From contig JBAQJJ010000040.1 of the NCBI GenBank assembly GCA_049300255.1, positions 74,978 through 138,977 of the forward strand: a stretch of DNA of 64,000 nt, written 5' to 3'. Shown here piece after piece: positions 21,106 to 60,104 of the stretch; position 1 is the first letter of the stretch; each line of letters begins with the position of its first letter. The position numbers and the translations under genes are program-made. The notes beneath the pieces were generated by a model. That model was not told the DNA's origin, searched no databases, and saw only the letters and a program-made list of their open reading frames with translations. This stretch comes from Thermoplasmata archaeon. GTDB lineage: Archaea; Thermoplasmatota; Thermoplasmata; Lutacidiplasmatales; UBA184.

Positions 21106-23267
21106 AGCCCTCCCAACGGCAGGAGATGCGAGATGATCATGTCCAGATGTTGGAAGACCGGGATCGCGGCCAGCCAGGCGAGGAGGATGTAGACGAGCTT
21201 GATCCCCAAGAACGCGCTCACGAGCCCGCCGAAGCCGTAGTACAACAGATTCCGACGGAGCAGATCGATCGCGCTGCGGGGCCGGAACGGTACGCCTGCG
21301 AGCGCGAGCGGGATGAGCAGGGGGATCACGAGAGCGTTGAACAGCAGCGTGGCGAGCACCGCTAGCCGCGGATCCGCCAGATCGAGTACGTTGAGCTCGC
21401 TGATCGCAGGGAGCCCCGCCGCGCCGGCAGCGATGAAGATCGCGGGTATGACCGCGAAATACTTCGCGACGTCGTTCGTGACCGTGAACGTCGTGAGCGC
21501 CCCGCGCGTGATGAGCAGTTGTTTGCCAATCGAGACGATCTCGATGAGCTTGGTCGGATCGCTGTCCAGGTCCACCATGTTACCCGCTTCTTTGGCAGCG
21601 CTGGTTCCGCTGTTCATCGCGAGCCCCACGTCCGCCCGGGCGAGCGCCGGTGCGTCATTGGTCCCGTCGCCGGTCATCGCGACGAGGCGCCCTTGCGCCT
21701 TTTCTCGGTCGATGACGATCAACTTCGTCTCTGGTTTCGCTTCGGCGATGAATTCGTCAACGCCACTCTCCTCGGCGATTGCCGCGGCGGTCAACCGGTT
21801 ATCGCCGGTGCACATGACCGTGTGGATGCCCATCGTCTTCAACTCGTGAATTCGGTCGCGTATGCCGGGCTTCACGACGTCCTTCAGATAGACGAGGCCA
21901 AGGACGTGCTTGTCCCGGGCGATAGCGAGCACGGTCATCCCCTGACGGGACGCTTCGTCCGCTGATTTTTGGAGCGCCATCGGCAACCGTCCGGCGTAGC
22001 TCGTCATCGCTTGGAGCGAGCCTTTGTAGATCTCGGTACCGCTTTGCAGGACGATCCCGCTCATCCGTCGCTCCGGGGTGAATGGCAGGACCTTGAACGT
22101 CCCGGGGTCGAGCCGGGTCGTGGGGGCGTGAAGCCGAGCTCCCAGGCGGATGATCGAACGACCTTCGGGAGTGTCGTCCAGGCTCGAGCAGAGCATCGCG
22201 CCTTCCAGCAGCTGCTCGATGGGGACCTCGGGCGCTTGGACGAACTGAACGGCGAGCCGGTTCCCAACCGTGATCGTGCCCGTCTTGTCGAGGATCAGGG
22301 TGTCCAAGTCGCCGGCGGCTTCGACCGCTTTTCCGGATTTGGCAATCACATTGGCCCGGGAGACTCGGTTGATCCCCGAGATGCCGATCGCGGGCAAGAG
22401 CGCCCCGATTGTGGTCGGCATCAGACAAACGAACAGCGCGACAATCGTCGCCAAATCCACGTAGACGATCGAAGTGAAATTGGCGAGATAAATGAATGTC
22501 ATGACTACGATCAGAAGCGAAATCGTCAACGCCGAAAGGAGGACCGTCAGCGCGAGCTCGTTGGGAGTGGGCTCTCGCGCGGTACCCTCTACCAGCCGGA
22601 TCAACCGGTCGAGGAACGAAGCGCCTTGGACCGCGGTGACGCGAATTCGAATCGTCCCCTGCAACACTTTCGTGGCCCCGAGCACGCTTGTCTTGTCCCC
22701 GCCGCTCTCCCGCGTGACGGCGGCGGACTCCCCCGTCATCATCGACTCGTCGATCAGCGCCGCGCCTTGGATCACGTCACCGTCCAAGGGGATGGTCTCC
22801 CCGGCCTCGACCTCAACCGTGTCCCCGACGCGCAGGACGTCCGCGCCTACCCAGCGGCTGGTGTCGTCCGGCATGATCTGTCGGGCGCGAATCCCGCTCT
22901 GGATCTCACGCAGGCTGTCCGCTTGGGCGCGTCCCTGCGCCTCCGCAATCGCTTCGGAGATATGCGAGAACCAGAGGGTGAGGAAGAGGATGATCGTGAC
23001 GCCCACGTAGTAGCCCGCGTTGTACGTGCGGGCGATATCCGGAAACGCCCGCGGATAGATCGTTAGAACGACCAGCAGGAAGAACAGTACGTAGACCGTG
23101 AACATTACCGGATGCCGGACCTCGCGTCTCGGATCGAAAAGCCGGAAGGAGTCGACGAGTACCCGCTGCACTGAGGTGTGCGGCACGCGCCGGACCGACA
23201 CTTGCGCCCCGGCTTCGATGATTTCGGACAACTCAAAGACCCCCCACCATTTGGGCGAGCGGACCAA
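21102..23267 (-). CDS. kdpB: Potassium-transporting P-type ATPase subunit B (KdpB).
   Basis: P-type motifs 'LDKTGTITVGN' (DKTGT) and 'MTGDGTNDAPALARADVG' (GDGxNDxP). 721 aa. Confidence 0.8.
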   Translation of the reverse strand: MVRSPKWWGVFELSEIIEAGAQVSVRRVPHTSVQRVLVDSFRLFDPRREVRHPVMFTVYVLFFLLVVLTIYPRAFPDIARTYNAGYYVGVTIILFLTLWFSHISEAIAEAQGRAQADSLREIQSGIRARQIMPDDTSRWVGADVLRVGDTVEVEAGETIPLDGDVIQGAALIDESMMTGESAAVTRESGGDKTSVLGATKVLQGTIRIRVTAVQGASFLDRLIRLVEGTAREPTPNELALTVLLSALTISLLIVVMTFIYLANFTSIVYVDLATIVALFVCLMPTTIGALLPAIGISGINRVSRANVIAKSGKAVEAAGDLDTLILDKTGTITVGNRLAVQFVQAPEVPIEQLLEGAMLCSSLDDTPEGRSIIRLGARLHAPTTRLDPGTFKVLPFTPERRMSGIVLQSGTEIYKGSLQAMTSYAGRLPMALQKSADEASRQGMTVLAIARDKHVLGLVYLKDVVKPGIRDRIHELKTMGIHTVMCTGDNRLTAAAIAEESGVDEFIAEAKPETKLIVIDREKAQGRLVAMTGDGTNDAPALARADVGLAMNSGTSAAKEAGNMVDLDSDPTKLIEIVSIGKQLLITRGALTTFTVTNDVAKYFAVIPAIFIAAGAAGLPAISELNVLDLADPRLAVLATLLFNALVIPLLIPLALAGVPFRPRSAIDLLRRNLLYYGFGGLVSAFLGIKLVYILLAWLAAIPVFQHLDMIISHLLPLGGL

Positions 23268-24942
23268 TGGCCATCACCGGCAGGAAGAACAGCGCCGAGA
23301 TGATGATCAAAATCAGGGTTAGGTAGATCGTAAACGTCGCGCTGGCGGTGCGCAACGTGCCGGGTCCGGGAGGGAGAGTCCCCTGGCGGGCAAACAGTCC
23401 GCCCACCTGCAGCATGGCATAGATCGGTAGGAATCGGCCGATCATCATGATCAACGCCCCCGTGACGTTGAAGAACAGCGTGGTATCGGTGTAGGTGGGC
23501 GGGGACATCGCGCTGCCGTTGTTGGCCGCTTCGGAAGTGAATTCGTACAACACGACGGTGAAATTGTACGCCGAAAGGTGCGTGGGGGCGGCGGCGAAGC
23601 CAGTAAAGTTACCGAGAATCGCTACGACGAAGGGGACTAGGATGACGGCGGGATGGATCAGAAGCGCCAGGGCGGCCCATTTCACCTGATCCGTGCCGAT
23701 CTTCTTGCCGAGGTACTCCGGGCTCCGGCCCACCAACAGTCCGGCGAGGAAGATCGCCAGTACGGCGAACAGGAGCAGCGTTCCAAAACCGGTTCCCTCC
23801 CCGCCCGGGGTGCTCTGCGTGAACATGCCGAAGAGCAGGACGAGTTGCGCTCCCGGCGATATCGCTGAGAGCGCCATATTGTTCGCGCCGACGTTCGAGT
23901 AGACGCTGACGACCTGGAAGAAGGACGCCTCGGGAAGCGAGAATCGCGTCTCCTGGCCGACCGTATACCCGCCCGTTTGCGCCCCGAGGTTGGGCACGGT
24001 CGCCAGCGTGGGGTTCGTCGCGGATTGGAAAATGATGAACAAGGCCAGTGCGACGACGAAAATGATCAGAATCGTGCCCAAGTAGGGCCATGCTTCGTTT
24101 CGTCGACGAATGATCTGGCCGAAAGCGAACGGTGTGGAGAAGGGGATCAGCATCATCACGCCGGATTCAAACAGATTCGAGATTGCACTCGGGTTTGCAA
24201 ACGGGTCGGCCGCGTTGGCGGAGTACCATCCACCGCCATTCGTTCCCAGGATTGAGATGGATTGAAACGATGCGACTGGGCCGAGGAAGATCGTTTGGGT
24301 CCCGCCGATGATGGGATGGACGACGATCGTATCCGTAAGGGTCTGCGGCACTCCGAGGAGGATCATGACAACCGCGCTCAGGGTCGCGATCGGGAAGAGA
24401 ATCCGCGTCAGGCTGCGGACCATGTCGACGTAGAAGTTGCCGATCGTTCCATCCTTGCGGACGAATCCTCGGATCATCGCCGCCGCCACGGCTAGACCGG
24501 TGGCGGCGGAGAGAAACAGGGCGAGTTGCCAAGCGATAACGGCCGATCCAAGACTGATCTGACTCTCGTTTACAAAGTGGGTGAAGTTCGTGTTCGTGGT
24601 GAAACTCATCGAAGAATGGAACGCAAGGGACCACGACATGTCGGGGACGCCGCGACCGTCAAAGGGGAGGCTAGCCTGAAAATAGAAGAAGAAGAACATC
24701 CAGGCAAACATCGCCCCGTTGACGAGCACCAGGGCGAGCATGTACTCCCTGACGCCCATGGAGCGCCGGGGCGAAGTGCCGAGCAAACGGTAGATCCCGT
24801 TCTCGATCGGCGAGATAATGAAGTCCCCGAACAGGGGTCGATTCATGTAAACTCGGCCCAGATAGCTCCCGAACCATGGGGCGATCGCGATGACCAGGCC
24901 CATGACGAGAATGATGTCCCAGAGCGAGCGAATGTCTACCAC
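23233..24942 (-). CDS. kdpA: Potassium-transporting ATPase subunit A (KdpA).
   Basis: 569-aa polytopic membrane protein with repeated 'GTNGGG'-type selectivity-filter-like segments ('ILGTNGGGWYSANAADPFANP'). Sits 5' of kdpB. Confidence 0.75.
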   Translation of the reverse strand: MVDIRSLWDIILVMGLVIAIAPWFGSYLGRVYMNRPLFGDFIISPIENGIYRLLGTSPRRSMGVREYMLALVLVNGAMFAWMFFFFYFQASLPFDGRGVPDMSWSLAFHSSMSFTTNTNFTHFVNESQISLGSAVIAWQLALFLSAATGLAVAAAMIRGFVRKDGTIGNFYVDMVRSLTRILFPIATLSAVVMILLGVPQTLTDTIVVHPIIGGTQTIFLGPVASFQSISILGTNGGGWYSANAADPFANPSAISNLFESGVMMLIPFSTPFAFGQIIRRRNEAWPYLGTILIIFVVALALFIIFQSATNPTLATVPNLGAQTGGYTVGQETRFSLPEASFFQVVSVYSNVGANNMALSAISPGAQLVLLFGMFTQSTPGGEGTGFGTLLLFAVLAIFLAGLLVGRSPEYLGKKIGTDQVKWAALALLIHPAVILVPFVVAILGNFTGFAAAPTHLSAYNFTVVLYEFTSEAANNGSAMSPPTYTDTTLFFNVTGALIMMIGRFLPIYAMLQVGGLFARQGTLPPGPGTLRTASATFTIYLTLILIIISALFFLPVMAIGPLAQMVGGL

Positions 24943-24957
24943 AGAGTGGGACCCGCC

Positions 24958-25071
24958 TCAGAAATGTTCGGGATGGATCATGGAATAGCCGAGATAGATC
25001 GTGAGTATGACGGAAATTACCGTCAGGGATACCAGACCAAGATTTTGCGAGATCCAGTCGAAGGGGCTCAT
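24958..25071 (-). CDS. kdpF: KdpF-like small hydrophobic subunit (about 37 aa).
   Basis: Internal ATG at 25071 yields 'MSPFDWISQNLGLVSLTVISVILTIYLGYSMIHPEHF', a single TM helix ending 'PExF' like KdpF. Sits 16 bp upstream of kdpA. Confidence 0.4.
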   Translation of the reverse strand: MSPFDWISQNLGLVSLTVISVILTIYLGYSMIHPEHF

Positions 25072-25151
25072 GGCCCTCCGGGCGGTTCGAGCAAAATTCC
25101 TGTATTTAGGCTCGAGGTTCGGGGGGCATTTTTGCCACGTGAGGACCATCC

Positions 25152-26888
25152 TTATACGGGGGCCCGACTCCGCGGTTTTCGGATCGCGCGCCCCTCGGCG
25201 GGCGCATCGGGACTCGCTTCGCGGCGACGACGGGCCTCGGCAGAGAGCCGACGAACGATCTTGCCCATCGACTTTTCGCGTCGGACCTCCGCCCGTTGGT
25301 AGCCGACATCTCGAGTTTCTCGCGTCAACAAAACCACGACCCGCCCGAGCGAGGTGCGTCCGGTTCGACCACGCCGTTGGATCGCTCGGATTTCACTCGG
25401 AACTGATTCAAAGAATACCACGAGGTCGACGTCAGGGACGTCCAACCCTTCCTCAGCGACGCTGCTGGCGACCAGCACGGGGAACCGACCGTCGCGGAAC
25501 GCGGTGAGAATCTGGGCTTGTTCGCGTTGATTCATCCCGCGATCCTCCCGATCCCGCGTGGCTTGGCCGACGAATCGACCGATGGTCCAATTTTGGGCTT
25601 CGAGGACGCCTTGGATCGATTGGATCGTGTCCCGATATTGCGCAAATATCAGAATGCGAGGGGGATGGCCGGTGGGGCGGGTCATTTGTTCGCGCACGAG
25701 TTCGATCAGCGCATCGAGCTTGGGGTGCGAGGCGGTCCTTCCTTCGCGAAGGAAGAGGCGCGCCTCTTCCCGCGCCTGGACGACCTGCGAGATTTTGAGG
25801 ACCGCGCGGTCGCCGCGGCTTGGCTTCTCCTTCCCACCGACCCGGTCCAGGTATTGTAGAAACGGTTCGATCCCTTGCGTCTCGAGCCGCTCCTGAGCGT
25901 GATGCAGATGCAGCAGCACGAGCTGGTGAAACAAGGGACCGAATTTCCGGGTCATCGGACCCGGTCGCGCGAAGATCTCCGCGCGCAACGCGATGAGATC
26001 TTTGACGGATAGCGACGTGATTGGTTTCTTTCTTAGATACCCCATCTTCTGGAGTTTTCGAGCGACTTCGTGGGACGCTCGCGTGAGGAGCTCTTGGATT
26101 CGTTTCGACTCGGGCGGTAGGTCGACCCAGCTGTATTCAATGTCGACCGGCTGGACGTATTCTCGGACGCCCTCATCTTCGCGCGAGCGAGCTTCGATGC
26201 GGGCCACTCCCAACGCGCCCACGACTTCCTCGATCCGCTCGTCACGCCCCCCCGGCGACGCGGTGAGCCCGAGCAGCCGCGCATCGTGCCTCCGATCGAA
26301 GCGGAACCGGGCGGCGATCGGTACGTACGCATACCTTCCGACGGCGTGATGGGCCTCGTCGACGACCAGCAGCGCCACACTGCGAAGGTCGTACCTCTCG
26401 GCGGCTAGGTCGTTCGCGACGATCTCGGGGGTGGCGAAGACCGCGTCTGCCGTTTCCCACGCCCCCTCTCGGACCGGGTGTCGAATCGTTCCCGTAAATC
26501 GACTCCGTCGGATATCGCTGAACCACCGGTGAAAAGAATCCGCATGCTGCTGGACCAGCGGGCGGGTCGGCGCGAGAAAGAGCACTTTGCCGTCCTGGCG
26601 GCGGAGCACTTCGGCCGCGACGAGCGCCGCGATGACGGTCTTCCCCAATCCGGTCGGCAGGACCACGAGCAGATCCTCCGTCAGGCCGATGCGCGCGAGG
26701 TCGATCTGGAAGGGAAGGGCACGAAGCGTCTGAGGACGTAAGAGGGGATGGACAATGAATCCCTCCTCGACATTCCACACTCCGGCAAGCGGGGGCGGTC
26801 GAAGGCGAGCCGCTAGGACCGGCACCCGCGGAGCTTCGGTGAGGGGTTCGCCGGTAGTGAACTCTTCGAGAGACCTCTGCTTCGGCAC
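25152..26888 (-). CDS. Hef/FANCM/RIG-I-like superfamily-2 helicase (helicase module only, 578 aa).
   Basis: Walker A 'VLPTGLGKT'. DEAH box 'LVVDEAHHAVGRYAYV' resembles Hef 'DEAHRAVGNYAY'. C-terminal helicase motifs 'VLVASSVAEEGLDVPDVDLVVFFE' and 'QRRGRTGR'. No ERCC4 nuclease domain. Confidence 0.6.
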   Translation of the reverse strand: MPKQRSLEEFTTGEPLTEAPRVPVLAARLRPPPLAGVWNVEEGFIVHPLLRPQTLRALPFQIDLARIGLTEDLLVVLPTGLGKTVIAALVAAEVLRRQDGKVLFLAPTRPLVQQHADSFHRWFSDIRRSRFTGTIRHPVREGAWETADAVFATPEIVANDLAAERYDLRSVALLVVDEAHHAVGRYAYVPIAARFRFDRRHDARLLGLTASPGGRDERIEEVVGALGVARIEARSREDEGVREYVQPVDIEYSWVDLPPESKRIQELLTRASHEVARKLQKMGYLRKKPITSLSVKDLIALRAEIFARPGPMTRKFGPLFHQLVLLHLHHAQERLETQGIEPFLQYLDRVGGKEKPSRGDRAVLKISQVVQAREEARLFLREGRTASHPKLDALIELVREQMTRPTGHPPRILIFAQYRDTIQSIQGVLEAQNWTIGRFVGQATRDREDRGMNQREQAQILTAFRDGRFPVLVASSVAEEGLDVPDVDLVVFFESVPSEIRAIQRRGRTGRTSLGRVVVLLTRETRDVGYQRAEVRREKSMGKIVRRLSAEARRRREASPDAPAEGRAIRKPRSRAPV

Positions 26889-26953: not shown

Positions 26954-28582
26954 TCAGAGGAAATGGACGTCGGGGGGAAGTTCCCCCGTGTAGCGTCGGA
27001 ACGCGTCCGGCCAATCCTGGGGGTCGAGCCCCTTCTGCGCCAGGAACGACGTCAACCAACGCTCGAGGCCGATCCCCGAACACCCGGACCAAAGCTCCCC
27101 CTTCTGGGCTCGGATCGTAAAGGGCCGGGTGTACTTGTCCCCGACGATCGACAGGTTCTGGAACTCCAGCCACTCGGAGTCGGTCCGGCTCCCCCGATAG
27201 GGGAGATAGGCTTCGAAATCGATCGTTCCCTTGATCTGGCGCTCCGCGTCGTCAACCCCGACGCCCCCGCTTTGCTGCATGTAGAAGGGGGTGACCCAGG
27301 CCGTCCTCCACTCTAGCTCGAGGATTGAGTCGAAGACTCGGGTATAGCGGTCGAGCAGCGCGGCGCGAAGCGAGACGAGGTCGTCCGGCGCTCCGACGAA
27401 CACCGGCTCGATCCGATGGAATTCATCGACCCGTTCTAGGCCGTGTCGCCCCCCGCTCTCGTAGCGGTTCGAGATCGCCGCTCGATCGTAGATCTTTAGC
27501 GGAAGGCTCTCGGTGGCAATCGTCCGGCCCGAGAGCCACCAGTAGATCATGGGACACTGGGCGTAATTTAGTACCGCGGTGGGCCCGGTCACGAGTCTTT
27601 CGAGCTCCTCGCGCGGCACTTGCCGCGTGATCTTCACCAGGTCGGTGAAGCGTTCCCATTCTGCCGGGTCTCGGCTCTTCGGCTCGACGACGTAGTAGAA
27701 CTCCCCGGGGAGCCCTTCGAGGTGACCGGTCTTGAGAAGGGTGTCGAAGGCGTCGAAGTGGGAGGCGACCACCTCTTGGAATCCCAGCGGGTGGAGCACC
27801 TCTTCTCGGGCGATCCGTTCCATCGTCCGCAATAGGTGTGCGGCGGTCGGTCCGAGGAACCACTTGCCTTTCGTCGGGCCATTGCGGACCCAATGACGCC
27901 GGAGCATCGCTTCTGTCGGGTCTTCCATGTGGAGCTGGTCGCGCGGAGGTCGTTGAGTGAGGAGTGCCCAGTACTGTTCTTTCCCGGCGTAACTCTGACG
28001 CCGGGCCTTCTCCTGAACAAGGGACGCGACTCGATCCATCCAGTTGTCGCGGATCGCCTCCTCGGGAAGGTCGTACAGCTCCAATTCGGCCGATCGTTCG
28101 AGGACCCTTAGTTCGTGGGGGAGCGGCAAGGAGATCGGTCCCTTGGGAAGGGGGTCGAGCGGGAGCTGGATTCGATATCGGGGTACTCGGAGCGACCGAA
28201 TTCCAGTCTTTTCGGATTTTCCGAACTCCTCGCCAAAACGCCGTGCAAAAGCGAGGAGCGCCTGATGGGGCCGCGTTCCCGTAGATTCCAGTACGAGCAT
28301 GAGCCGATCACCTTGCAGCGACCAGTCCGCCAACCGGGCCTCCCCTCGCTGACCCATCGACCGATGGAGGACTTCCGCGACCAAGGAAGGAAGCCGCGCC
28401 TGGATCACGGGCGGATTCGGTGGCGCACCGCTGAGGACGAATTCTGCCTCGATTCGGTGCTCCATCGGGCTCGCGACCGGGGGGCGTGTTATAATCTTGT
28501 GCTCAACGTAGGTCGGGGAACTGTAGTTGCCCCCGGTTACGCTTTTGAAGGGTTCCCGTGTCCGCTGCTCGAATCGGATCAA
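26954..28582 (-). CDS. Class-II aminoacyl-tRNA synthetase, probably methanogen-type (atypical, zinc-dependent) seryl-tRNA synthetase.
   Basis: Class-II motif-2-like 'GLERVDEFHRIEPVF'. Candidate zinc ligands Cys343 ('YAQCPM'), Glu392 ('HRIEP') and Cys501 ('WSGCSG'), with spacings 49 and 109. This compares with the Cys306/Glu355/Cys461 triad (spacings 49 and 106) of Methanosarcina barkeri mSerRS. The real start may be Met40 (coordinate 28465). Confidence 0.45.
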   Translation of the reverse strand: MIRFEQRTREPFKSVTGGNYSSPTYVEHKIITRPPVASPMEHRIEAEFVLSGAPPNPPVIQARLPSLVAEVLHRSMGQRGEARLADWSLQGDRLMLVLESTGTRPHQALLAFARRFGEEFGKSEKTGIRSLRVPRYRIQLPLDPLPKGPISLPLPHELRVLERSAELELYDLPEEAIRDNWMDRVASLVQEKARRQSYAGKEQYWALLTQRPPRDQLHMEDPTEAMLRRHWVRNGPTKGKWFLGPTAAHLLRTMERIAREEVLHPLGFQEVVASHFDAFDTLLKTGHLEGLPGEFYYVVEPKSRDPAEWERFTDLVKITRQVPREELERLVTGPTAVLNYAQCPMIYWWLSGRTIATESLPLKIYDRAAISNRYESGGRHGLERVDEFHRIEPVFVGAPDDLVSLRAALLDRYTRVFDSILELEWRTAWVTPFYMQQSGGVGVDDAERQIKGTIDFEAYLPYRGSRTDSEWLEFQNLSIVGDKYTRPFTIRAQKGELWSGCSGIGLERWLTSFLAQKGLDPQDWPDAFRRYTGELPPDVHFL

Positions 28583-30081
28583 CTATGGCGCACGAGGTAC
28601 CTGCACACGGACTCTTCATCGACGGAAAGTGGCTCTCTCCGCCTGACGCAAAGCGCTTCACAACGACCAATCCCACCACGCGGGAACCGATCGCCTCCTT
28701 CGTTTCGGGAACCGCTCGCGACGTGGACAACGCCATCGGAGCGGCCGCGCGGGCGTTCCCACGATGGCGCGACACGCCCGCCCCCATACGTGGAGAGATT
28801 CTCCTGACGGCGGCGACGGTTTTGAAACGTCGGAAGGAGGAACTCGGACGCACCGTGTCCCAGGAAATGGGGAAGGTGATCGCCGAGGGTCTCGGCGATG
28901 TCCAGGAGTCCATCGACTTCGTCGAATACATGGCGGGCGAGGGAAGGCGAATGTTCGGCGAAACGGTGCCTTCCGAGCTGCAATCCAAGTTTTGCATGAC
29001 GATCCGACAACCAAAGGGGGTCGTCGCGTGCATCACCCCTTGGAACTTTCCGACGGCGATTCCTAATTGGAAGATTGCCGCCGCGTTGATTTGCGGGAAC
29101 ACCGTCGTGTTCAAACCCGCTTCGAATACCGCGCTATGCGCAACCGAGGTCGTCAAAGCGTACGAGGAAGCTGGGATCCCCCCCGGGGTACTGAATCTCG
29201 TAACCGGCCCCGGATCGGTGGTTGGCGATTCCCTGATCAGCGACCCGCGCGTCCGGCTCATTTCGTTCACCGGCGGGATCGACACCGGGCGCGAGGTCTA
29301 TGTGCGCGGTGCTCAGAGCCTCAAGATGGTACATCTTGAGCTCGGAGGCAAGAACCCCGTGATCGTGATGGACGACGCCAATCTCGACCTCGCGTTCGAG
29401 GGGGTGCTCTTCGGGGCATTTGGCACCGCCGGGCAGCGATGCACCGCGACGAGCCGACTCATTTTACACGAGAAGGTCTACGACGACTTCCTCGGCCGAC
29501 TCGTCGCGAGATTGGAGAAGTTCAAGATCGGAGACCCACTCGATCCAACGACGGACATGGGTCCCGTCGCCTCGTCCGATCAGGAAAAGAAGATTCTCCA
29601 GTACATTGAGGTCGGTCGCTCCGAAGCGCGATTGCGAACCGGTGGAAAGAAACTCACGGGAGGGGCGTGGGATCGAGGGTTTTTCATTGCACCCACGATC
29701 TTCGAGACGGAGCACGGGACGCGTATCTCGAAGGAGGAGATCTTCGGGCCGGTCTTGTCCGTGATCAAGGTCGGGAGCTACGACGAAGCGATTCGCGTGG
29801 CGAACGACGTCGAATACGGACTCTCCTCTTCAATCTACACGCGCGACGTCAATCTTGCGTTTCGCGCTTTGCGCGAACTGGAAGCAGGCATCACCTACGT
29901 CAACGCGCCGACGATCGGGGCAGAAGTACAGCTCCCGTTCGGCGGGGTCAAACACACCGGGAACGGTGGACGTGAGGCGGGCAGTACCGCGATCGAAGAA
30001 TTTACGGATATCAAGACGGTCTTCATCGACTTCTCGAATCGCCTTCAAAAGGCCCAGATCGATACCCCGTTCACTGTATGA
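28558..30081 (+). CDS. NAD(P)-dependent aldehyde dehydrogenase.
   Basis: 'ELGGKNPVIVMDDANLD' and the catalytic-Cys block 'FGTAGQRCTATSRLILHE'. Glycine motif 'GPGSVVG'. About 500 aa. Confidence 0.7.
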   Translation: MSAARIGSTMAHEVPAHGLFIDGKWLSPPDAKRFTTTNPTTREPIASFVSGTARDVDNAIGAAARAFPRWRDTPAPIRGEILLTAATVLKRRKEELGRTVSQEMGKVIAEGLGDVQESIDFVEYMAGEGRRMFGETVPSELQSKFCMTIRQPKGVVACITPWNFPTAIPNWKIAAALICGNTVVFKPASNTALCATEVVKAYEEAGIPPGVLNLVTGPGSVVGDSLISDPRVRLISFTGGIDTGREVYVRGAQSLKMVHLELGGKNPVIVMDDANLDLAFEGVLFGAFGTAGQRCTATSRLILHEKVYDDFLGRLVARLEKFKIGDPLDPTTDMGPVASSDQEKKILQYIEVGRSEARLRTGGKKLTGGAWDRGFFIAPTIFETEHGTRISKEEIFGPVLSVIKVGSYDEAIRVANDVEYGLSSSIYTRDVNLAFRALRELEAGITYVNAPTIGAEVQLPFGGVKHTGNGGREAGSTAIEEFTDIKTVFIDFSNRLQKAQIDTPFTV

Positions 30082-30336: not shown

Positions 30337-31773
30337 TCAGAACGTGGGGCCGGTGCGGTCCGGATTATCGAAGTTGGTAAGCAGCGTTTGATTGCGGAAA
30401 CGCGGCCGCGCGAGTGGGGAGAGGAGCGGATCCTCTTCGAGGGCGGGCAGGGTGTCTTGGATAGGTACGTCGATCAGAATTTCCCGCGTTCGTCCGCCTC
30501 GGCCGCGCGATACGATCGTAGCTTGGATGAGCCCAAGAGATTCGAGCTCGGAAAGATAATTCGAGATGCTCCGGTTGTGCAGTGGCTGGAGACCCAAGCG
30601 CTGCGCGAGCTTCGTATAGCCGGTATAGACCTCGCCCGTGAGGACGCCGCCCCTCCGGCGTTCATACGCGAGCAGGATCGCATAGAGCAGGACCTTGCAG
30701 TGCGAGGGCAACGTGCGGCAGCAGTCGACGATTATGTCCTGCTCCACCCGATTCTTGGCCTTGACCACGTGGTCCGGTGTGATCCGCCGAGCGTGATCGC
30801 GCTCGGCCATTTCTGCCGAGAGGCGGAGCAGGGTGAGGGCACGGCGAGCATCCCCATTCTCGAGTGCGGCGTACGCGGCACACCGCTCGATCACGCCGGC
30901 GTCCAGCACGCCCTCTCGGAACACCTCGACAGCGCGATCGCGCAAGATGTCCTGCAATTGAGGCGCGTCGTAGGGGGGAAAGAGGATCTTCTCCTCGTTC
31001 AACCGACTGCGGACCCGCGCGTCGAGATTGTTGGTGAACTTGAGGTCGTTCGAGATCCCGACCAGCACGATGCGGGCGACGTTCAATTCGGTGTTGAGCT
31101 GGCTCAATGTGTAGAGCACGCCATCGCCGCTACGCGCCACGAGGCGATCGATCTCGTCGAGCACCAGGATCACCAACCCCTTGCGCGCGTCGATCATTTG
31201 GCGCATGAGCGATTGCACCCGGTCGAGGGACCATCCGGTCGGGATGCGATCCGATTCAGTCGCCGCGAACGTGTTTCCGATCGTCTGCAAAAGGCTGTAC
31301 GGCGTATCGATATTGCCGCAGTTGATCGTGATGAACGTCAGGTGACGGCTCTGCTCCGCGCGTCGCTCCATGTCCTGACGGACTTGGGCGACGACGGCCG
31401 TCTTGCCGGTCCCGATCTTTCCGTAGATCAGAAGATTGGATGGAATCTCGCTCTGCAGTGCGGGAGCCAGGACTTCGGCGACCTGGCGGATCTGATGCTC
31501 GCGATGTGGTAACCGGCTCGGAATATACGAATCTCGGAGGATTTCCCGGCTCCCCTTGAACAGCTCTCCCTTGGTCTCGAGGATCGCATCGAAGAACTGG
31601 CTCGCGGTGCTCTTCGGGAGGGAGGGCGGAGTCGAGGCCGGCCCGTTGCTGGTCGGCAATCCACCTCCTCCCCCTATGCGCTCTCCTCCGGCGATGGCCG
31701 GCTCATTCGACAGTTCGTTCGATTTGGGCTCCGTCGGTAGATCCGACGGCTGGCCGATGGGAGTAGAGGGCAC
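30337..31773 (-). CDS. orc1: Orc1/Cdc6 replication initiator (AAA+ with C-terminal winged helix), with an approximately 55-aa low-complexity N-terminal extension.
   Basis: Walker A 'LLIYGKIGTGKT'. Walker B 'VILVLDEIDRLV'. 'VLVGISNDLKF' sensor region. C-terminal 'LSELESLGLIQATIVSRGRGGRTREIL' winged helix. Confidence 0.75.
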   Translation of the reverse strand: MPSTPIGQPSDLPTEPKSNELSNEPAIAGGERIGGGGGLPTSNGPASTPPSLPKSTASQFFDAILETKGELFKGSREILRDSYIPSRLPHREHQIRQVAEVLAPALQSEIPSNLLIYGKIGTGKTAVVAQVRQDMERRAEQSRHLTFITINCGNIDTPYSLLQTIGNTFAATESDRIPTGWSLDRVQSLMRQMIDARKGLVILVLDEIDRLVARSGDGVLYTLSQLNTELNVARIVLVGISNDLKFTNNLDARVRSRLNEEKILFPPYDAPQLQDILRDRAVEVFREGVLDAGVIERCAAYAALENGDARRALTLLRLSAEMAERDHARRITPDHVVKAKNRVEQDIIVDCCRTLPSHCKVLLYAILLAYERRRGGVLTGEVYTGYTKLAQRLGLQPLHNRSISNYLSELESLGLIQATIVSRGRGGRTREILIDVPIQDTLPALEEDPLLSPLARPRFRNQTLLTNFDNPDRTGPTF

Positions 31774-42268: not shown

Positions 42269-42343
42269 GGGACTGTGGGGTAGCTTGGTCCATCCTTCGG
42301 GGTTCGGGACTCCGAAACGCCAGTTCAAATCTGGCCAGTCCCA
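42269..42343 (+). tRNA. tRNA-Pro (anticodon CGG).
   Basis: Hand-folded. Acceptor GGGACTG/CAGTCCC (7 bp, perfect). T-arm GCCAG-TTCAAAT-CTGGC. Anticodon arm CGGGG-TTCGGGA-CTCCG with U33 and G37. Discriminator A, no encoded CCA. The D-arm region carries an extra nucleotide or irregular pairing (GGGT...ATCC/TCCT). Confidence 0.55.
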
Positions 42344-42437
42344 TCGCCCGACAACGCCTGCTGCGGCCTCGTCCCGGGACCGGGTGGCGGCCGCCCTCTC
42401 CGAGGCGCGTGTGTGACGCCACCCGAGAAGGCGTTCT

Positions 42438-54018: not shown

Positions 54019-55509
54019 TCAGGTCGAAGCGCTCAGCAGGCTCGCCGGCGGAGACCCGCGGGCGAGCGCGCGACGGTAGCCGAGGAAGGAAAATGCGTTC
54101 CCCAGGACCGGGAATACCATGAGGATCGCCCCGGTGCGGAGCGTGCTCTCCTGGTATCGCTGACCAACGCGCCAACTGCCGACCGCTTGGCCGAACAGCC
54201 CCACAATGGAGAGGATCATTCCCAGGAGGAGCAACGGGACTCCGAAGAGAACGGCCACCGGCGCCAGGGCGTACGAGGTCGATGTCAAGGCGACTCCCGT
54301 GAGGAGAAGGCCGAGTCCGCTCGCGGTCATCGCGACGCCGAGAATCCCCACGAGGGTGAGGAACGCCGGGGTCGTGAAGTCCCGCGAGGACGTTGCCAAC
54401 TTCCGGAAGCCGGAGAAATACAAGAGGAACGACACCGCCCCCGCGACGGCCGCCGGCACGAGCAGTAGGACCGCGAGGAAAGCGTGATGGTAAAGTCCGA
54501 CGGGATTCCACGCCGCACCCGGATAGGCCAGCAGGCTCTGAGTGAGAAGGAGGGCGCCCCCAAGAAAGAGAATCTGCGCGAGAGAACCGGATAGCGAGGC
54601 GGCCCGCAGGGCCCGTACCCCCTCCCGTTCCGGGGCATCTACGGCTTGCAATAGAGCTGTCTCGCGGAGAACCCCCATTCCCCGAATGCAGACATACTCA
54701 ACGAAGACAATCCCCACGATGAAGAAGCTCACCGGGTACGGCTCGTACCAGCCGATGAACAGCCCCGCCCAGGTCGCCGTCACCGCCACCACGATCGAGA
54801 CCAGGACCGCGCTCGCCGTGCGTCTGGTCAACCGCACCGCGATAGCGGCCGGTGTCACCATCAGAGCGAAAATGAGGAAGACCCCAATGATCTGAACGGC
54901 GATCGAGATCGTCACGGCGAGGAGAATCATGAACGAGAGGTTGAGGAATCCCATCGGCAGTCCCTTGGCCTCGGCTACATCTTCGTCCAACGATGCAAAC
55001 AGGAGTGGGCGATAGATCATCGCAACTACCCCGAGGACGATCAGGCCGGTCCAGATGGTGAACGTCACTCCGGCAGAACTAATGCCCAACACCTCCCCAA
55101 AGAGAATGGAGTAGGCCTCGGTGGCGTACCCTTGATAGAGGCTGAGAAACAGCAGTCCCAACGCCAAGGCAAACGCCAGCACGGTCCCGGTCTCTACATC
55201 CCGGCTCGATGCTTTGTTTCCGAGAAAGGCCATGCCGCTGGCCGTCGCGATGGTGAAAAGTAGTAGCCCGTACACGGGATCGACCCCCACGAGGACCGCG
55301 GCCGCCGCGCCCGAAAAGCCGGTGTGACCGAGTGCGTGGCTGGCGAACGAAGAACGTCGTAGCACGACAAAGTAGCCGACTATGCCGGCCACAATGGCGA
55401 TCATCGTACCCGCCATGAACGCGTTGCGCATGAACTCGAATTGCAGCATCGCGCGCAGATCGGTGATCAGGTTCCAGCTGAAGGGCGGCCCGGCCGCTGG
55501 ACCGCTCAT
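54019..55509 (-). CDS. Metal (Zn/Mn) ABC transporter permease, ZnuB/MntB-like, with a C-terminal extra membrane domain (496 aa).
   Basis: ABC-3 permease pattern of 8–9 TM helices in the first approximately 280 aa ('LQFEFMRNAFMAGTMIAIVAGIVGYFVVLRR'), followed by an additional approximately 200-aa polytopic segment. Confidence 0.6.
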   Translation of the reverse strand: MSGPAAGPPFSWNLITDLRAMLQFEFMRNAFMAGTMIAIVAGIVGYFVVLRRSSFASHALGHTGFSGAAAAVLVGVDPVYGLLLFTIATASGMAFLGNKASSRDVETGTVLAFALALGLLFLSLYQGYATEAYSILFGEVLGISSAGVTFTIWTGLIVLGVVAMIYRPLLFASLDEDVAEAKGLPMGFLNLSFMILLAVTISIAVQIIGVFLIFALMVTPAAIAVRLTRRTASAVLVSIVVAVTATWAGLFIGWYEPYPVSFFIVGIVFVEYVCIRGMGVLRETALLQAVDAPEREGVRALRAASLSGSLAQILFLGGALLLTQSLLAYPGAAWNPVGLYHHAFLAVLLLVPAAVAGAVSFLLYFSGFRKLATSSRDFTTPAFLTLVGILGVAMTASGLGLLLTGVALTSTSYALAPVAVLFGVPLLLLGMILSIVGLFGQAVGSWRVGQRYQESTLRTGAILMVFPVLGNAFSFLGYRRALARGSPPASLLSAST

Positions 55510-56393
55510 GCCCCCTCCTCGCCTCGATCGTCTTCTCCCCCGACGATTACGATATTATTCCGGGAATCGCGTAGTACTTCGACGTGCACTCCGTAAAGCG
55601 CCGTAAGGCTTTCCGAGGTGAGAACCTCGTTCGGTGTGCCGGTCGCGACTTTGCCGTTGGCGATGTAGATCACTTTGTTCAGGCACTTGATCATGGGATT
55701 GATGTCGTGCGCCACGAGCAGGGTGGTGACGCCACGAGCCTGGACCAGACCGTGAATGGTCTCGACTAACTCCCGACTTCTGCGAAGATCGAGATTCGAC
55801 AAGGGTTCATCCAGCAGCAGCATCTCCGGATTCCCGACGAGGGCCTCGGCGAGGAAGACTCGTTGCAATTCGCCGCCGGACAATGCCCCTAGGGACTTGG
55901 AAGCCAGATCCGAAGCTCCCACATCCTCCAGTGCTTTGGCCGCCGCATCTCGCTCCGCTCCGAGACGAAATCGCGGACCCCACGGGCTGGGGCGGAAGCG
56001 TAGCCCTGGACCCCATCGATTCCCCGGGAAACCCAACCGAACGAGCTTGTCGCACTCGAGATGGGTATCGCGGTCGATGGTGTGCCGCTGCGGTACGTAA
56101 CCGATTCGAGGGTTGCCTCGGTGGGGGGGGCCACCGAGTACCGAGAGTTTACCCGTCGATGGCCAGTGGAGACCCAGTAGCATTCGGAAGAGGGTGGTCT
56201 TGCCTGCTCCATTGGGGCCGATCACCGCGACGAATTCTCCACGTTGGACGTCAAACGTGGCGTTCTTCCAGACGACCTTGTTTCGATACCTTACCTCGAC
56301 CCGTTCGGCCTGGATCGCCGGCGGGCCGTCGTGACGGGGGGGGCCCACGCCGTGGTACGAGAATATTGAAGGGGAGGGACTGCTAGCTTCCAC
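55506..56393 (-). CDS. Metal ABC transporter ATP-binding protein (ZnuC-like).
   Basis: Walker A 'GPNGAGKTT'. Signature 'LSGGELQRV'. Walker B 'LLLDEP'. A His/Gly-rich insertion region is typical of ZnuC. Overlaps the permease start. Confidence 0.75.
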   Translation of the reverse strand: MEASSPSPSIFSYHGVGPPRHDGPPAIQAERVEVRYRNKVVWKNATFDVQRGEFVAVIGPNGAGKTTLFRMLLGLHWPSTGKLSVLGGPPHRGNPRIGYVPQRHTIDRDTHLECDKLVRLGFPGNRWGPGLRFRPSPWGPRFRLGAERDAAAKALEDVGASDLASKSLGALSGGELQRVFLAEALVGNPEMLLLDEPLSNLDLRRSRELVETIHGLVQARGVTTLLVAHDINPMIKCLNKVIYIANGKVATGTPNEVLTSESLTALYGVHVEVLRDSRNNIVIVGGEDDRGEEGA

Positions 56394-56399
56394 GCGCCA

Positions 56400-57530
56400 T
56401 CATTGTCCTAGCTTGTAGGCGTTCAGCGCATTTTCGAGGTTGTTGTACTCCCCGTACATCCAATCCTGGAAGGTTGTGTCCGGAGGTTGAATGGTCTCGC
56501 TGACGAACGTGACCGTCACATTATGTTGCGGGGCCAGCGCCTCCATGGTAGTCGTGATCGGAGTCACGGTCTGCACGTTGTAGACCAAGACCCGCACATT
56601 TCCGCTCTCGAGCTGACATTCAAAGAGCGACACGCTCTGGGCAGGTGGGTCATTCCCTTCCGCGATCGCCTCCATGAACGGTTGCGGCGAAATCAGCGCG
56701 AGCCCCGTATAGTTCGCCAAATAGACGAATATACTCTCGGTCGAGGCAACGACGGTACCTGCGAATTCGTCTCGAATCTGATTGGCCCGGCTGTAAAGCT
56801 GGTCAATCGAGACGCCTCCGGAACTTCCTCCGGTGGATGAGTTCAGATTCGCGAAGTTATGCTGGAAGATGCTGGCCGATGCGGGCTGGAGAGCGACGAG
56901 GTCGCCGTACATCGCGAGGAGCGTGTGATTGACGTAGATCGGGTTGTACCACTGGTGGGGATTGCCGGTGACGATCCCTCCCGTAACACTGACACCGTTC
57001 AAATTGCCAATGTTCAGGATTTCCTGGCCGGGCGTGTTCGAGGCCGTGATCAACTGAGTCGCCCAGTCGTCATAGCCCACCCCGTTAACGACCACGAGGT
57101 TGGCGTCTGCAATCGCAGCGGCGTCGGACGCATTCGCTTCGTATTCATGAGGATCCGCGTTCGGATCGCTCACGATGCTGAGCACCGAGGTAAGATTCCC
57201 ACCCAACTGGCTGATCAGACTACCCCAGAAGTTCTCGGCGGCCACGACTTGGATCGTCTGGCCGGTGGGCACCGGTGCAATGGGCCCGTTGGTCGTTGTG
57301 CCCGCGGCGAAGTTGGGCGTTGTGTCGCCAGATACCTGACCCGCGGTCGCATTCGCCCCCAGCTCCGCGGGAGTAAAACTGGCACAAGGGTTGCCCGGGG
57401 CCTGGCTCGTGACCACTTCATAGGCGAGGGCGCCCCCCGCGACGAGCACCACCGCTACGATGGCGAAGTACTTCAGAGTCCATTGTCCAGATCGGCGTGG
57501 CTTCTTCGCACCCGTCGAGCTCGACTCCAT
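56400..57530 (-). CDS. Metal ABC transporter substrate-binding protein (ZnuA/TroA cluster-9 SBP), membrane-anchored.
   Basis: N-terminal TM 'LKYFAIVAVVLVAGGALAY' after the internal Met at 57530. 'DPNADPHEYEANASDAAAIADANLVVVNGVGYDDWA' and 'NPHQWYNP' are the metal-ligand His blocks of cluster-9 SBPs. Confidence 0.6.
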   Translation of the reverse strand: MESSSTGAKKPRRSGQWTLKYFAIVAVVLVAGGALAYEVVTSQAPGNPCASFTPAELGANATAGQVSGDTTPNFAAGTTTNGPIAPVPTGQTIQVVAAENFWGSLISQLGGNLTSVLSIVSDPNADPHEYEANASDAAAIADANLVVVNGVGYDDWATQLITASNTPGQEILNIGNLNGVSVTGGIVTGNPHQWYNPIYVNHTLLAMYGDLVALQPASASIFQHNFANLNSSTGGSSGGVSIDQLYSRANQIRDEFAGTVVASTESIFVYLANYTGLALISPQPFMEAIAEGNDPPAQSVSLFECQLESGNVRVLVYNVQTVTPITTTMEALAPQHNVTVTFVSETIQPPDTTFQDWMYGEYNNLENALNAYKLGQ

Positions 57531-57624
57531 CGTATCGTTCGGCCGTCGTTGGGAACCTGTACTCGACCGCGAGTCGTACCCACGGGTCGGCGTATTGGGG
57601 GAACTCATTTCTTGCAAACCCCGT

Positions 57625-58047
57625 TCAATTTTGGTCCGCACAGGGGGTAATCGGCTCGCCGTGAGGGCACACAGAGGGATGGCCCTCGGCGGCGCACACT
57701 TTTTCGACCGTTTTGTGCGAAAGGGAGAGGTCGACCTCTCGCGCCGCCACGCAAGTCGCTTCGGGTGTTAGGCCTAGTTGGCTGAAGAGTGTCTCTGCCA
57801 CTCGGTGATGACGTTGATACTCGAGGAGGGTCGCACGGCCACGGTTCGTCAAGCGAGACTTTCCCCGGTATCGCTCGAGGAGCCCCAGCTGCTCGAGAGG
57901 AGTGATGTGAGCGAGCGCCGATGGGGGACTCACCTTCAGGGACGCGGCGATGAGCTTGAGCGACACTCCACGCTGGGCAGTCTCGTGAGGGGCGATTGCG
58001 CGGAGCGTATCGACCTGACGGCGAGTCAGCCGCTCCAGGGTCTCCAT
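57625..58047 (-). CDS. DtxR/MntR-family metal-dependent transcriptional repressor.
   Basis: N-terminal wHTH ('LKLIAASLKVSPPSALAHITPLEQLGLLE') and metal-binding/dimerisation helix 'LLEYQRHHRVAETLF'. It is the first gene of the znu-like operon and overlaps the SBP start. Confidence 0.6.
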   Translation of the reverse strand: METLERLTRRQVDTLRAIAPHETAQRGVSLKLIAASLKVSPPSALAHITPLEQLGLLERYRGKSRLTNRGRATLLEYQRHHRVAETLFSQLGLTPEATCVAAREVDLSLSHKTVEKVCAAEGHPSVCPHGEPITPCADQN

Positions 58048-58066
58048 GCCCTACCCTACCCAGTGG

Positions 58067-58101
58067 CCATATAAATGGTATACTCTAATAATTAGTACTA
58101 A
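58067..58101. promoter_or_regulatory. Divergent promoter region: a strong TATA box (ccatataaatgg) about 25 bp upstream of the regulator ATG, plus a perfect 10-bp palindrome TTAGTACTAA.
   Basis: Read directly. atataaat at 58069–58076. ttagtactaa at 58092–58101 is its own reverse complement, a candidate DtxR-family operator. Confidence 0.3.
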
Positions 58102-58244
58102 GGAAACAATTGCCATATTTAGACACCTCTCCGACGCTTGCTGCCTGGGGAGCCGCCGGCCGAATCGTCGATGCGGACCACGGTCGAAATCCTCTGAATC
58201 GCTCCACGGAACGGCTTACTAGCCGCGCTCGATTACGTGCGGGG

Positions 58245-58775: not shown

Positions 58776-60104
58776 TCACTCGTTCCTTGGAGAGGGTCGC
58801 TTCGGGTGACGACCCCGGGCGAGTTCCCGTTCCCCCAGGAACGGGTTCGCTCGGAGCGTTCGCTGATCGGCCATCAAGGGGCGGAGGACCTTCGGAATCT
58901 CGATCTCCCCTTCCGCGGTTTGGTAGTTTTCCATCAAGGAGACCACTAGGCGGGGTAGCGCCACCCCCGACGCGTTCAAGGTATGGAGGGGCTCGGCCTT
59001 GACTCCCTGCGAGCGGCGCCATCGAATATTCGCTCGGGATGATTGGAAGGCCTCGAAATTCGAGATGGAACTGACCTCCAACCAACGTCGAGATCCCGGC
59101 GCCCAGAGTTCCAGATCGTAACACTTCGCCGCTTTGTCCGGAAGATCCCCCGTGCAGAGACTTACAATCCGATACGGCAGTTCGAGTCCTTGGAGAACCA
59201 ATTCGGCCTCCTCCCGGAGCGCTTCCAACTGCGCGTAGGAATCTTCGGGCGTGGAGAAGACGACTAGTTCTACTTTGTCGAATTGATGGACCCGGGCGAT
59301 CCCCCGCGTCTCCACTCCGTGACCCCCGGCCTCGCGTCGAAAGCAGGGCGTGTAGGCCATCAGCTTCAATGGAAGGTCGTCGGGAAGCAGTATTTCATCG
59401 CGGAACAAATTCGTAACGGGAACTTCGGCAGTCGGCGCCAGCCAAAGGTCGTCGAGCTTGACTTGATAGGAGTCCTCGGCGAACTTTGGCAGTTGGCCGG
59501 TTCCGATCATCGATTGGGAGTTGATCAAGATCGGAGGAACGACTTCGACAAATTCCCGCGCGGCATGGAGCTCGCGCATGTACCGGATCAGGGCATGTTC
59601 CAGACGGGCCAGGTCCCCCCAAAGGACAAAGAATCCTTCCCCCGCGACTTTCGCCCCCCGTTCTTCGTCCAAAAGGTTGAGGGCGTGACCGATGTCGTCG
59701 TGCGTGCGTAGGGCAAACGTCGGTTCCGGACGCGCGCGACGTTCCGCCAGGACCACGTTGTCGGCCGCAGTCGTACCACGGGGGACAGACGTATGAGGGG
59801 CCACGGGAAGCAGGAGGAGGGCGTGGGCGCGTTCCGCCTCCAAGCGACGAGCCTCCCCCTCCAGTTCTCGAATCTCCTCGCGGAGGGCGGCGAATGTATC
59901 GTCGGAGGCACCTTCGGCAGCGGTTGGACGATCAGCTCCGCGTCGCGCCGCCGAGTTGCGCTGGGCGCGCAAGCGGTTGATCCGCTGATCGATCTCCTTC
60001 CAGCGGGCATCGAGTGCCAAGAGTCGGTCGACCTCTTCCGGGTCACGGTTCCGCGCGACCAGGCCGTCCTTCACGAGCTCCGGATGCTCCCGAAGAAAGC
60101 TCAT
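58776..60104 (-). CDS. serS: Seryl-tRNA synthetase, canonical (bacterial/eukaryal-type) form.
   Basis: N-terminal coiled-coil start 'MSFLREHPELVKDGLVARNRD'. Motif 2 'TPCFRREAGGHGVETRGIARVHQFDKVELVVF'. Motif 3 region near the C-terminus. 443 aa from the internal ATG at 60104. Confidence 0.8.
   Translation of the reverse strand: MSFLREHPELVKDGLVARNRDPEEVDRLLALDARWKEIDQRINRLRAQRNSAARRGADRPTAAEGASDDTFAALREEIRELEGEARRLEAERAHALLLLPVAPHTSVPRGTTAADNVVLAERRARPEPTFALRTHDDIGHALNLLDEERGAKVAGEGFFVLWGDLARLEHALIRYMRELHAAREFVEVVPPILINSQSMIGTGQLPKFAEDSYQVKLDDLWLAPTAEVPVTNLFRDEILLPDDLPLKLMAYTPCFRREAGGHGVETRGIARVHQFDKVELVVFSTPEDSYAQLEALREEAELVLQGLELPYRIVSLCTGDLPDKAAKCYDLELWAPGSRRWLEVSSISNFEAFQSSRANIRWRRSQGVKAEPLHTLNASGVALPRLVVSLMENYQTAEGEIEIPKVLRPLMADQRTLRANPFLGERELARGRHPKRPSPRNE

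Follow-up and report, generated by a model that had tools for sequence, protein, structure and literature searches.

Two genes for seryl-tRNA synthetase (SerRS), of two different types, lie 30 kb apart in the DNA analysed here, a stretch of 64,000 nucleotides (hereafter the window) from contig JBAQJJ010000040.1 of a Thermoplasmata archaeon, a metagenome-assembled genome (MAG). One encodes the common, zinc-independent enzyme (type 1). The other, as judged from sequence and a structural model, is a gene for a full-length SerRS of the atypical, methanogen type (type 2). The GenBank entries of the two proteins on this contig, MFZ3356619 and MFZ3356645, have numbers that differ by 26. A preliminary description, made from the letters of the DNA, had read an open reading frame (ORF) at 26954..28582 as the methanogen-type enzyme; this ORF does exist, on the minus strand, a detail which that description did not give. 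The coordinates of all features are collected in Table 1.

The assignment of the type-2 protein follows from several independent comparisons. Among the NCBIfam profiles, it is matched by NF002120 at 8.9e-133 and by TIGR00415 (serS_MJ) at 1.1e-66, and the next-best families are amino acid:[carrier protein] ligase (6e-11) and threonyl-tRNA synthetase (ThrRS, 5e-3). Neither the NCBIfam nor the PDB searches gave any signal of SepRS or PylRS. Using phmmer against the PDB, we found the Methanosarcina barkeri SerRS (2cim) at 1e-128, aligned over its full length (query 41–542, chain 24–522) at about 41% identity with only a few gaps of one or two residues each, and the Methanopyrus kandleri SerRS (3w3s) at 1e-62. 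The N-terminal tRNA-binding domain specific to this family (PF18490, tRNA_bind_4) is recognized by Pfam at 4.5e-16. This domain is unrelated to the coiled coil of type-1 enzymes. The methanogen-type assignment put forward in the preliminary description is thus borne out by NF002120, TIGR00415, 2cim and PF18490, with type-2 SerRS standing far ahead of SepRS, PylRS and other class II families in the profile comparison; the grouping with another family that would tell against it was not seen.

The same description had pointed to Cys343, Glu392 and Cys501 (542-residue numbering) as candidate zinc ligands. These residues, which are Cys304, Glu353 and Cys462 in the 503-residue protein, correspond column for column to Cys306, Glu355 and Cys461 of the M. 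barkeri enzyme in the phmmer alignment to 2cim. Here we take C326, E375 and C481 of the 2cim chain to be these native residues, shifted by a 20-residue tag (chain lengths of 522 and 502). All 22 close homologues have the triad unchanged, as do 25 of 25 full-length representatives of the family with identities as low as 24%, and because of this family-wide invariance and the full-length alignment at 1e-128 the match is not a matter of chance. In a 35-sequence family alignment, R334 and E336 of motif 2 and G464 and R469 of motif 3 are likewise invariant, G466 being the exception. N437 and S439, invariant in the 22 close homologues, align with Asn435 and Ser437 of the M. barkeri enzyme.

An AlphaFold model computed from a diverse alignment reached a pLDDT of 90.3 and a pTM of 0.80, with a single dip at residues 391–410, which presumably coincides with the flexible loop that orders serine in M. 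barkeri, one of the insertions, besides a helix-turn-helix, that are peculiar to this family. This model superseded a first one made from a shallow alignment, which had a pLDDT of 64 and an unusable catalytic domain. In Foldseek superpositions of the later model, about 505 columns were matched to M. barkeri SerRS (TM 0.86–0.89, rmsd 3.1–3.5 Å, E 2e-55), and M. kandleri SerRS 3w3s gave a TM of 0.83. Type-1 SerRSs and amino acid:[carrier protein] ligases matched it with a TM of about 0.5, in the catalytic core alone. The N-terminal tRNA-binding domain, for which a structural check had been proposed, is present in the model and is included in the superposition on both 2cim and 3w3s.

The ORF encodes 542 amino acids from a TTG codon and 503 from the ATG at 28465. 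The ATG is almost certainly the true start, and the TTG start is probably wrong, because nearly all of the type-2 homologues listed have 502–504 residues and lack the 39-codon extension, because the GenBank entry for the protein of the window (P0241, on a 246,547-bp contig) has 503 residues, and because the extension contains a TATA-like ATTATAA box and crosses the divergent promoter region into the ORF of the neighbouring aldehyde dehydrogenase (GTG start at 28558). The ATG of the latter gene at 28585 fits homologues of 497–498 amino acids. The placement of the ATTATAA box suggests, from archaeal promoter geometry, that the type-2 transcript would be leaderless or nearly so.

That a standard SerRS with motif 2 also lies in the window, as had been noted before, is equally clear. 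The type-1 protein scores 417.8 bits against TIGR00414 (cut-off 301.65) and matches PF02403 (the Seryl_tRNA_N coiled coil, 5.6e-14) and PF00587 (1.1e-34). Its motif 2 reads FRRE at residue 255, and its motif 3 reads GVALPR...ENYQ at residues 380–395. A protein from a Thermoplasmata MAG (P0121) is 100% identical to it.

Table 1. Features of the two SerRS genes and of their surroundings in the window
Feature	Position	Strand	Basis and remarks
Type-2 (methanogen-type) SerRS coding sequence	26954..28465	minus	503 aa plus stop; profile, PDB, homologue-length and model matches
N-terminal tRNA-binding domain, about residues 1–160 (boundary approximate)	27986..28465	minus	PF18490; both models give pLDDT about 90
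Class II catalytic core with motifs 2 and 3	26957..27985	minus	2cim alignment, family alignment
Cys304 codon (Cys343 in 542-aa numbering), predicted zinc ligand 1	27554..27556	minus	Aligned to 2cim chain C326
Glu353 codon (Glu392 in 542-aa numbering), predicted zinc ligand 2	27407..27409	minus	Aligned to 2cim chain E375
Cys462 codon (Cys501 in 542-aa numbering), predicted zinc ligand 3	27080..27082	minus	Aligned to 2cim chain C481
Motif 2, R334 / E336 codons	27464-27466 / 27458-27460	minus	Alignment to 2cim
Motif 3 (G464, G466, R469), R469 codon	27059-27061	minus	Alignment to 2cim
Upstream ORF extension, 39 codons from TTG start	28466..28582	minus	Probably untranslated
TATA-like box ATTATAA	28489..28495	minus	Read from sequence; 24–30 nt 5' of ATG 28465
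Type-1 (common, zinc-independent) SerRS coding sequence	58776..60104	minus	442 aa; TIGR00414, Seryl_tRNA_N, class II core
Helicase gene (Hef-like, DEAD/ResIII), flanking the SerRS position on one side	25152..26888	minus	Pfam
Aldehyde dehydrogenase gene, other flank	28585..30081	plus	Pfam, synteny; ORF GTG start 28558
Cdc6/Orc1 gene, conserved neighbourhood, archaeal marker	30337..31773	minus	Domain search, synteny
DtxR-like repressor gene with znuA, znuC, znuB cassette	54019..58047	minus	Pfam; about 730 nt from type-1 SerRS; context only

The type-2 gene occupies a conserved chromosomal position. The order Cdc6, aldehyde dehydrogenase, type-2 SerRS, helicase and KdpFABC is held in the window, at the loci of its three closest type-2 relatives (L002, L084 and L085), at L167 in a Lutacidiplasmatales MAG, and at about 30 metagenome loci whose type-2 proteins are 66–71% identical to that of the window. 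The inner part of this order, aldehyde dehydrogenase, type-2 SerRS and helicase, is found at about 36 related loci with type-2 identities of 66–93%. Wherever related loci reach far enough, the helicase gene adjoins a SerRS gene of one type or the other, and at six loci (L004, L005, L168–170 and L175) it is a type-1 SerRS that stands, with tight spacers, between the aldehyde dehydrogenase and the helicase. The identity of these type-1 proteins to that of the window is 68% (L004), 65% (L005), 57% (L168–170, in Lutacidiplasmatales MAGs) and 59% (L175); the gene at L005 has the orientation of the type-2 gene, and those at the other loci are inverted. L004 and L005 were found by a contig scan with a concatenated query of both types, which had three Thermoplasmata loci among the matches listed and was otherwise dominated by bacteria through a conserved type-1 peptide, VHQFDKVE.

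When the two flanks were concatenated for a neighbour-joining tree, L004 and L175, both with type 1, were monophyletic in none of 200 bootstraps, and the flanks of each are nearer to those of type-2 loci (78–79% and 75%) than to each other (71.7%). The identity of type-2 SerRSs correlates with that of the adjoining helicases (r = 0.80). The type-1 SerRSs of the clade are monophyletic with respect to haloarchaeal and bacterial sequences, and fall into four sub-clades in three contexts: (a) that of the window, between AHSA1/GNAT and NUDIX/luciferase-like genes, which is kept as far as a 69% relative; (b) the helicase/aldehyde dehydrogenase position, occupied by two sub-clades; and (c) a site beside the A-type ATPase operon. 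By these sequences, both SerRS forms look long established in the clade, one taking the place of the other at a single locus. The large sub-clade at the third site (L171–L174, in GCA_049585555.1 and JGI contigs of about 398 kb; 64–65% type-1 identity) has the gene order DUF72, SerRS, a small ferredoxin gene and the A-type ATPase operon.

The type-2 SerRS family is small, given that it comprises only 59 representatives at 50% clustering (E <= 1e-30). Its named members outside the classical methanogens include Methanofastidiosa (43–46% identity) and an Altiarchaeota MAG (35–36%). In the neighbour-joining tree of the family, the soil Thermoplasmata form a clade with 100% bootstrap support, which is joined at 99.5% by a sediment tier of about 50% identity. 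Methanofastidiosa are sister to the Thermoplasmata enzymes (72%), M. barkeri is found elsewhere on the Thermoplasmata side, and M. kandleri and the class I methanogens constitute the other branch. Given this placement, the Thermoplasmata type-2 enzyme looks like an old resident of the clade and not like a recent import from methanogens. A second tier of type-2 SerRS genes (L119–L166 and L006, 49–55% identity), which consists of about 47 mostly sediment or freshwater contigs and the Thermoplasmata MAG PMV_4.75, has none of the neighbour genes of the window and lies in another genomic context.

The archaeal genes of the window include those for Cdc6/Orc1, an archaeal-type SAM synthetase, an Elp3-like enzyme and the Hef-like helicase, and its G+C content is 0.60–0.67. 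The nearest relatives of both SerRS proteins come from MAGs named 'Thermoplasmata archaeon'. Four related MAGs (GCA_022750155.1, GCA_022750255.1, GCA_022750305.1 and GCA_022750415.1), which stem from the study that described Lutacidiplasmatales, have accessions adjoining that of the type genome of 'Ca. Lutacidiplasma silvani' (GCA_022750295.1), and one related member is named Lutacidiplasmatales by NCBI. The host would then be a soil Thermoplasmata related to Lutacidiplasmatales, a placement drawn from 73–77% identity of flanking genes and from synteny. Lutacidiplasmatales are described as heterotrophs that live in acidic soils, aerobically or as facultative anaerobes, and lack genes for methanogenesis (PMC9287336); SerRS is not among the entries in the supplements of that paper. 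The host of the window, too, is probably no methanogen.

The two genes also occur together beyond this contig. Both types are encoded in another assembly of this species (MFZ1022947 and MFZ1024160), and a relative with SerRS proteins 85% (type 2) and 84% (type 1) identical to those of the window carries the two genes 25 kb apart on one 1.0-Mb contig. Pairing of GenBank protein numbers for 10 type-2 and 10 type-1 clusters proved co-occurrence for the species of the window only; one pair of MCI43xxxxx numbers was rejected as coming from different MAGs. A comparison of the longest recorded contigs of the type-2 and type-1 hit lists, a test of low sensitivity, gave a 1,000,091-bp contig as the only one in common. 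The protein collection is incomplete, in that L098's own protein, for example, was not found in it at 100%. No type-1 gene lies within 10 kb of the type-2 gene in any of 80 metagenome loci. Cluster counts in Thermoplasmata are about 135 for type 2 and about 65 for type 1, a ratio of roughly 2:1, and the most widespread type-2 protein, P0020 (90 contigs), is without a type-1 counterpart of similar prevalence; within these incomplete data, it would seem that type 2 is the sole SerRS of many genomes. On one JGI contig (L086, Ga0669127_0000003, 699,666 bp), a type-1 SerRS 93% identical to that of the window stands in the same context, and no type-2 cluster of the protein collection is recorded for a contig of this length, which may reflect either loss of type 2 or the incomplete collection.

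Both SerRS genes are intact, without frameshifts or stop codons. Compared with 93% relatives, the type-2 gene has a dN/dS of 0.042 and the type-1 gene a dN/dS of 0.056, and the flanking helicase and aldehyde dehydrogenase genes have 0.049 each. The two SerRS genes are thus under strong purifying selection, with no decay.

We consider it fairly probable that both genes encode working SerRSs and that they are retained as a pair of homeoalleles, like the pair in M. barkeri. In this reading, the dimeric class II core of the type-2 enzyme would bind serine, by homology, by means of a zinc ion that Cys304, Glu353 and Cys462 hold in the active site, and the family-specific N-terminal domain would dock tRNA-Ser. 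The type-2 protein is predicted to serylate tRNA-Ser, for it fills at many loci the position that a type-1 SerRS fills elsewhere. Two non-orthologous enzymes would then perform the same reaction from one chromosome; both would be expressed, and both would charge tRNA-Ser. The two types would behave as interchangeable homeoalleles at the position among Cdc6, aldehyde dehydrogenase, Hef-like helicase and Kdp genes, swapping by recombination through the conserved flanks. In the lineage of the window, type 2 stands in the conserved position and type 1 at a second site, with selection keeping both. A bolder proposal, that the SerRS position of acidic-soil Thermoplasmata is a recombination cassette with repeated swaps of zinc-dependent type 2 and zinc-independent type 1 through the conserved flanks, joined in some lineages, that of the window included, to a long-kept, selected division of labour between two enzymes (for example by metal supply, inhibitor resistance or preference among tRNA isoacceptors) and not to a transition, is offered only tentatively, as we think it rather unlikely.

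Several observations weigh against the homeoallele reading. The type-2 protein falls short of the NCBIfam equivalog cut-offs (for NF002120 it has 443.6 bits and the cut-off is 611; for TIGR00415 the values are 225.3 and 489.55), which are a database criterion and not a biochemical one, and one type-2 cluster is named by PGAP only as 'aminoacyl--tRNA ligase-related protein'. Trp396 of M. barkeri is replaced by Phe in the protein of the window, as it is in M. kandleri. The nodes that place L004 and L175 have moderate neighbour-joining support, 65% and 49%. Co-occurrence is proven for the sub-clade of the window only (type-1 identity of at least 84%), the probable order placement and non-methanogenic lifestyle of this MAG are drawn from its relatives, and the activity of both enzymes is predicted. 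By the structural features compared, the protein is otherwise an ordinary type-2 SerRS. As to the cut-offs, they appear to be tuned to the sequences of classical methanogens, since the divergent Thermoplasmata clade scores far below them; PGAP names most members of this clade serine--tRNA ligase. Annotation is inconsistent within the family. P0306 and P0023, from an Altiarchaeota MAG and one Thermoplasmata MAG, have an intact zinc triad and the vaguer PGAP name, likely because divergent branches of the family, like the protein of the window, do not reach the equivalog cut-offs (611 and 489 bits).

The main rival is a division of labour, in which the two enzymes serve different conditions or substrates, such as type 1 as a back-up under zinc limitation, resistance to seryl-adenylate mimics, different tRNA-Ser isoacceptors, or tRNA-Sec. 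Pure redundancy hardly explains equally strong selection on both copies and a pair kept since the split from the 84–85% relative, and precedents exist in the second, low-zinc ThrRS of Anabaena and in the albomycin-resistant SerRS2 (PMC9437257). Furthermore, the type-1 gene stands beside genes for a DtxR-like repressor and znuACB in the window and in the 93% relative (L086). However, in the 84% (L003) and 69% (L176) relatives the type-1 gene has no such cassette beside it, and the perfect palindrome CTAATTATTAG of the AT-rich znu promoter (58085–58095), a putative operator, occurs once in the window and has no copy upstream of either SerRS gene at up to two mismatches. Since the znu adjacency is not conserved and the palindrome is unique, a zinc-regulatory link to the SerRS pair remains speculation, and zinc-sparing regulation of the pair was set aside on these two grounds. 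Nor does the window contain tRNA-Ser, tRNA-Sec or selenocysteine machinery, its only tRNAs being tRNA-Pro and tRNA-Ala, and the tRNA-Sec role suggested in the preliminary description finds no support here. Korencic et al. are said to have found in 2004 that both SerRSs of M. barkeri charge tRNA-Ser, which also counts against a division of labour. On balance we hold such a division to be possible and rather unlikely.

That the redundancy is transient, the genome being caught in mid-replacement with one copy neutral and soon to be lost, would accord with the finding of either type at the same position in related lineages, with the 2:1 excess of type-2 clusters and with the single-type genomes suggested by the prevalence of P0020. 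A neutral copy is, however, hard to reconcile with a dN/dS of 0.04–0.06 in both genes, the same as in their flanks, and with the lack of frameshifts and stops; moreover, the pair persists across the split from the 84–85% relative, where dS is saturated, and the type-1 context of the window reaches the 69% relative. We regard this account as quite improbable. Far less probable again is that the type-2-like protein is a non-translational paralogue, namely an amino acid:[carrier protein] ligase, SepRS or PylRS. The scores under the equivalog cut-offs and the homology of those ligases to the catalytic core of the family could be cited for it, but the protein has the full N-terminal tRNA-binding domain that the ligases lack, its match to them is about 120 orders weaker (6e-11 against 8.9e-133) and limited to the core, with a TM of about 0.5, the searches showed no sign of SepRS or PylRS, and occupation of the type-1 position at many loci would fit a working SerRS. 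The least probable account is an artefact of assembly or binning that has brought genes of different organisms into a chimeric contig or MAG. It has in its favour only that the window belongs to a metagenome-assembled genome; against it, the two genes share one contig of uniform G+C content, they recur on the independent 1.0-Mb contig of the 85% relative and in the second same-species assembly, and synteny is conserved around both. The paralogue and the artefact are effectively excluded.

Other features of the surroundings were recorded in the course of this work. The KdpFABC operon and a universal stress protein gene (21102–26888 in the window, helicase gene included) are tightly kept beside the helicase throughout the clade, so the block from Cdc6 to Kdp is useful as a synteny anchor for these MAGs. 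In comparison with the 84% relative, the block at 54019–58110 looks inserted between the NUDIX and luciferase-like genes; in addition to the znu genes it holds a peptidase M28 gene and the tRNA-Ala. The tRNA-Pro(CGG) at 42268–42345 was found by ARAGORN and missed at the gathering threshold by a whole-window Rfam scan; because a local Rfam scan gives it 50.9 bits, it is real and the miss is a filter artefact.

The coexistence of both SerRS forms was described as essentially confined to M. barkeri in a paper of 2011 (PMC3191353), and the atypical form is still described as 'confined only to methanogenic archaea' in a review of 2024 (PMC10817482). The preliminary description's remark that coexistence is known essentially only from M. 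barkeri agrees with the former, and the latter restricts the atypical form to methanogens. About 120 to 140 Thermoplasmata type-2 clusters already carry the name 'serine--tRNA ligase' in public MAG annotation, so that databases already list the gene, even if papers do not discuss it. New with respect to the literature searched are the host group, which is probably non-methanogenic, and the evidence of swapping at the level of gene position.

M. barkeri, the classic dual genome, offers the closest comparison. Its type-2 SerRS (2cim, 2cj9, 2cja and 2cjb) has the same domain order, zinc triad and motifs 2 and 3 as that of the window, and the equivalents of Asn435 and Ser437, and this organism also carries both SerRS types. 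In contrast, the host of the window is a soil Thermoplasmata and probably no methanogen, Trp396 is Phe in its enzyme, and the enzyme belongs to a Thermoplasmata clade of its own. The enzymes of M. kandleri (3w3s) and the class I methanogens are of the same family, with the same fold (TM 0.83) and zinc triad, but they are only about 30% identical to the protein of the window, occupy a separate branch of the tree and, unlike in the dual host studied here, are the only SerRS of their genomes. Amino acid:[carrier protein] ligases (Bll0957, PDB 3mey) share a homologous zinc-containing catalytic core; however, they have no N-terminal tRNA-binding domain, do not charge tRNA and match the protein of the window weakly (1e-4 to 6e-11).

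Andam and Gogarten (2011, PMC3191353) described rare and common forms of SerRS, ThrRS and TyrRS exchanged among relatives as homeoalleles, and read the dual-form genome of M. barkeri as a transition state. The SerRSs of these Thermoplasmata share with such homeoalleles the presence of two divergent forms of one function, patchily distributed within one taxonomic group and exchanged among close relatives. They differ from the published cases in that the evidence here is positional, the group lies outside the methanogens, and both copies look stable and not transitional; the mechanism of exchange is inferred. Duplicated aminoacyl-tRNA synthetases for particular conditions are also known, namely ThrRS T2 of Anabaena at low zinc and SerRS2 of Streptomyces with albomycin resistance (PMC9437257). 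These, too, are pairs of synthetases for one amino acid of which one is zinc-dependent, whereas the two SerRSs of the window belong to different families and are not recent paralogues, and no link to regulation or resistance was found for them.

With the window, an independent lineage with both SerRS types is added to that of M. barkeri; its host is probably no methanogen, and both copies are under strong purifying selection. According to the homeoallele idea, transfer among relatives lets a non-orthologous synthetase take over from an essential one, and about 40 related loci, in which one position has either type, make it directly testable on existing genomes. This clade also provides a natural enzyme pair for asking why a zinc-dependent and a zinc-independent route to Ser-tRNA are both kept.

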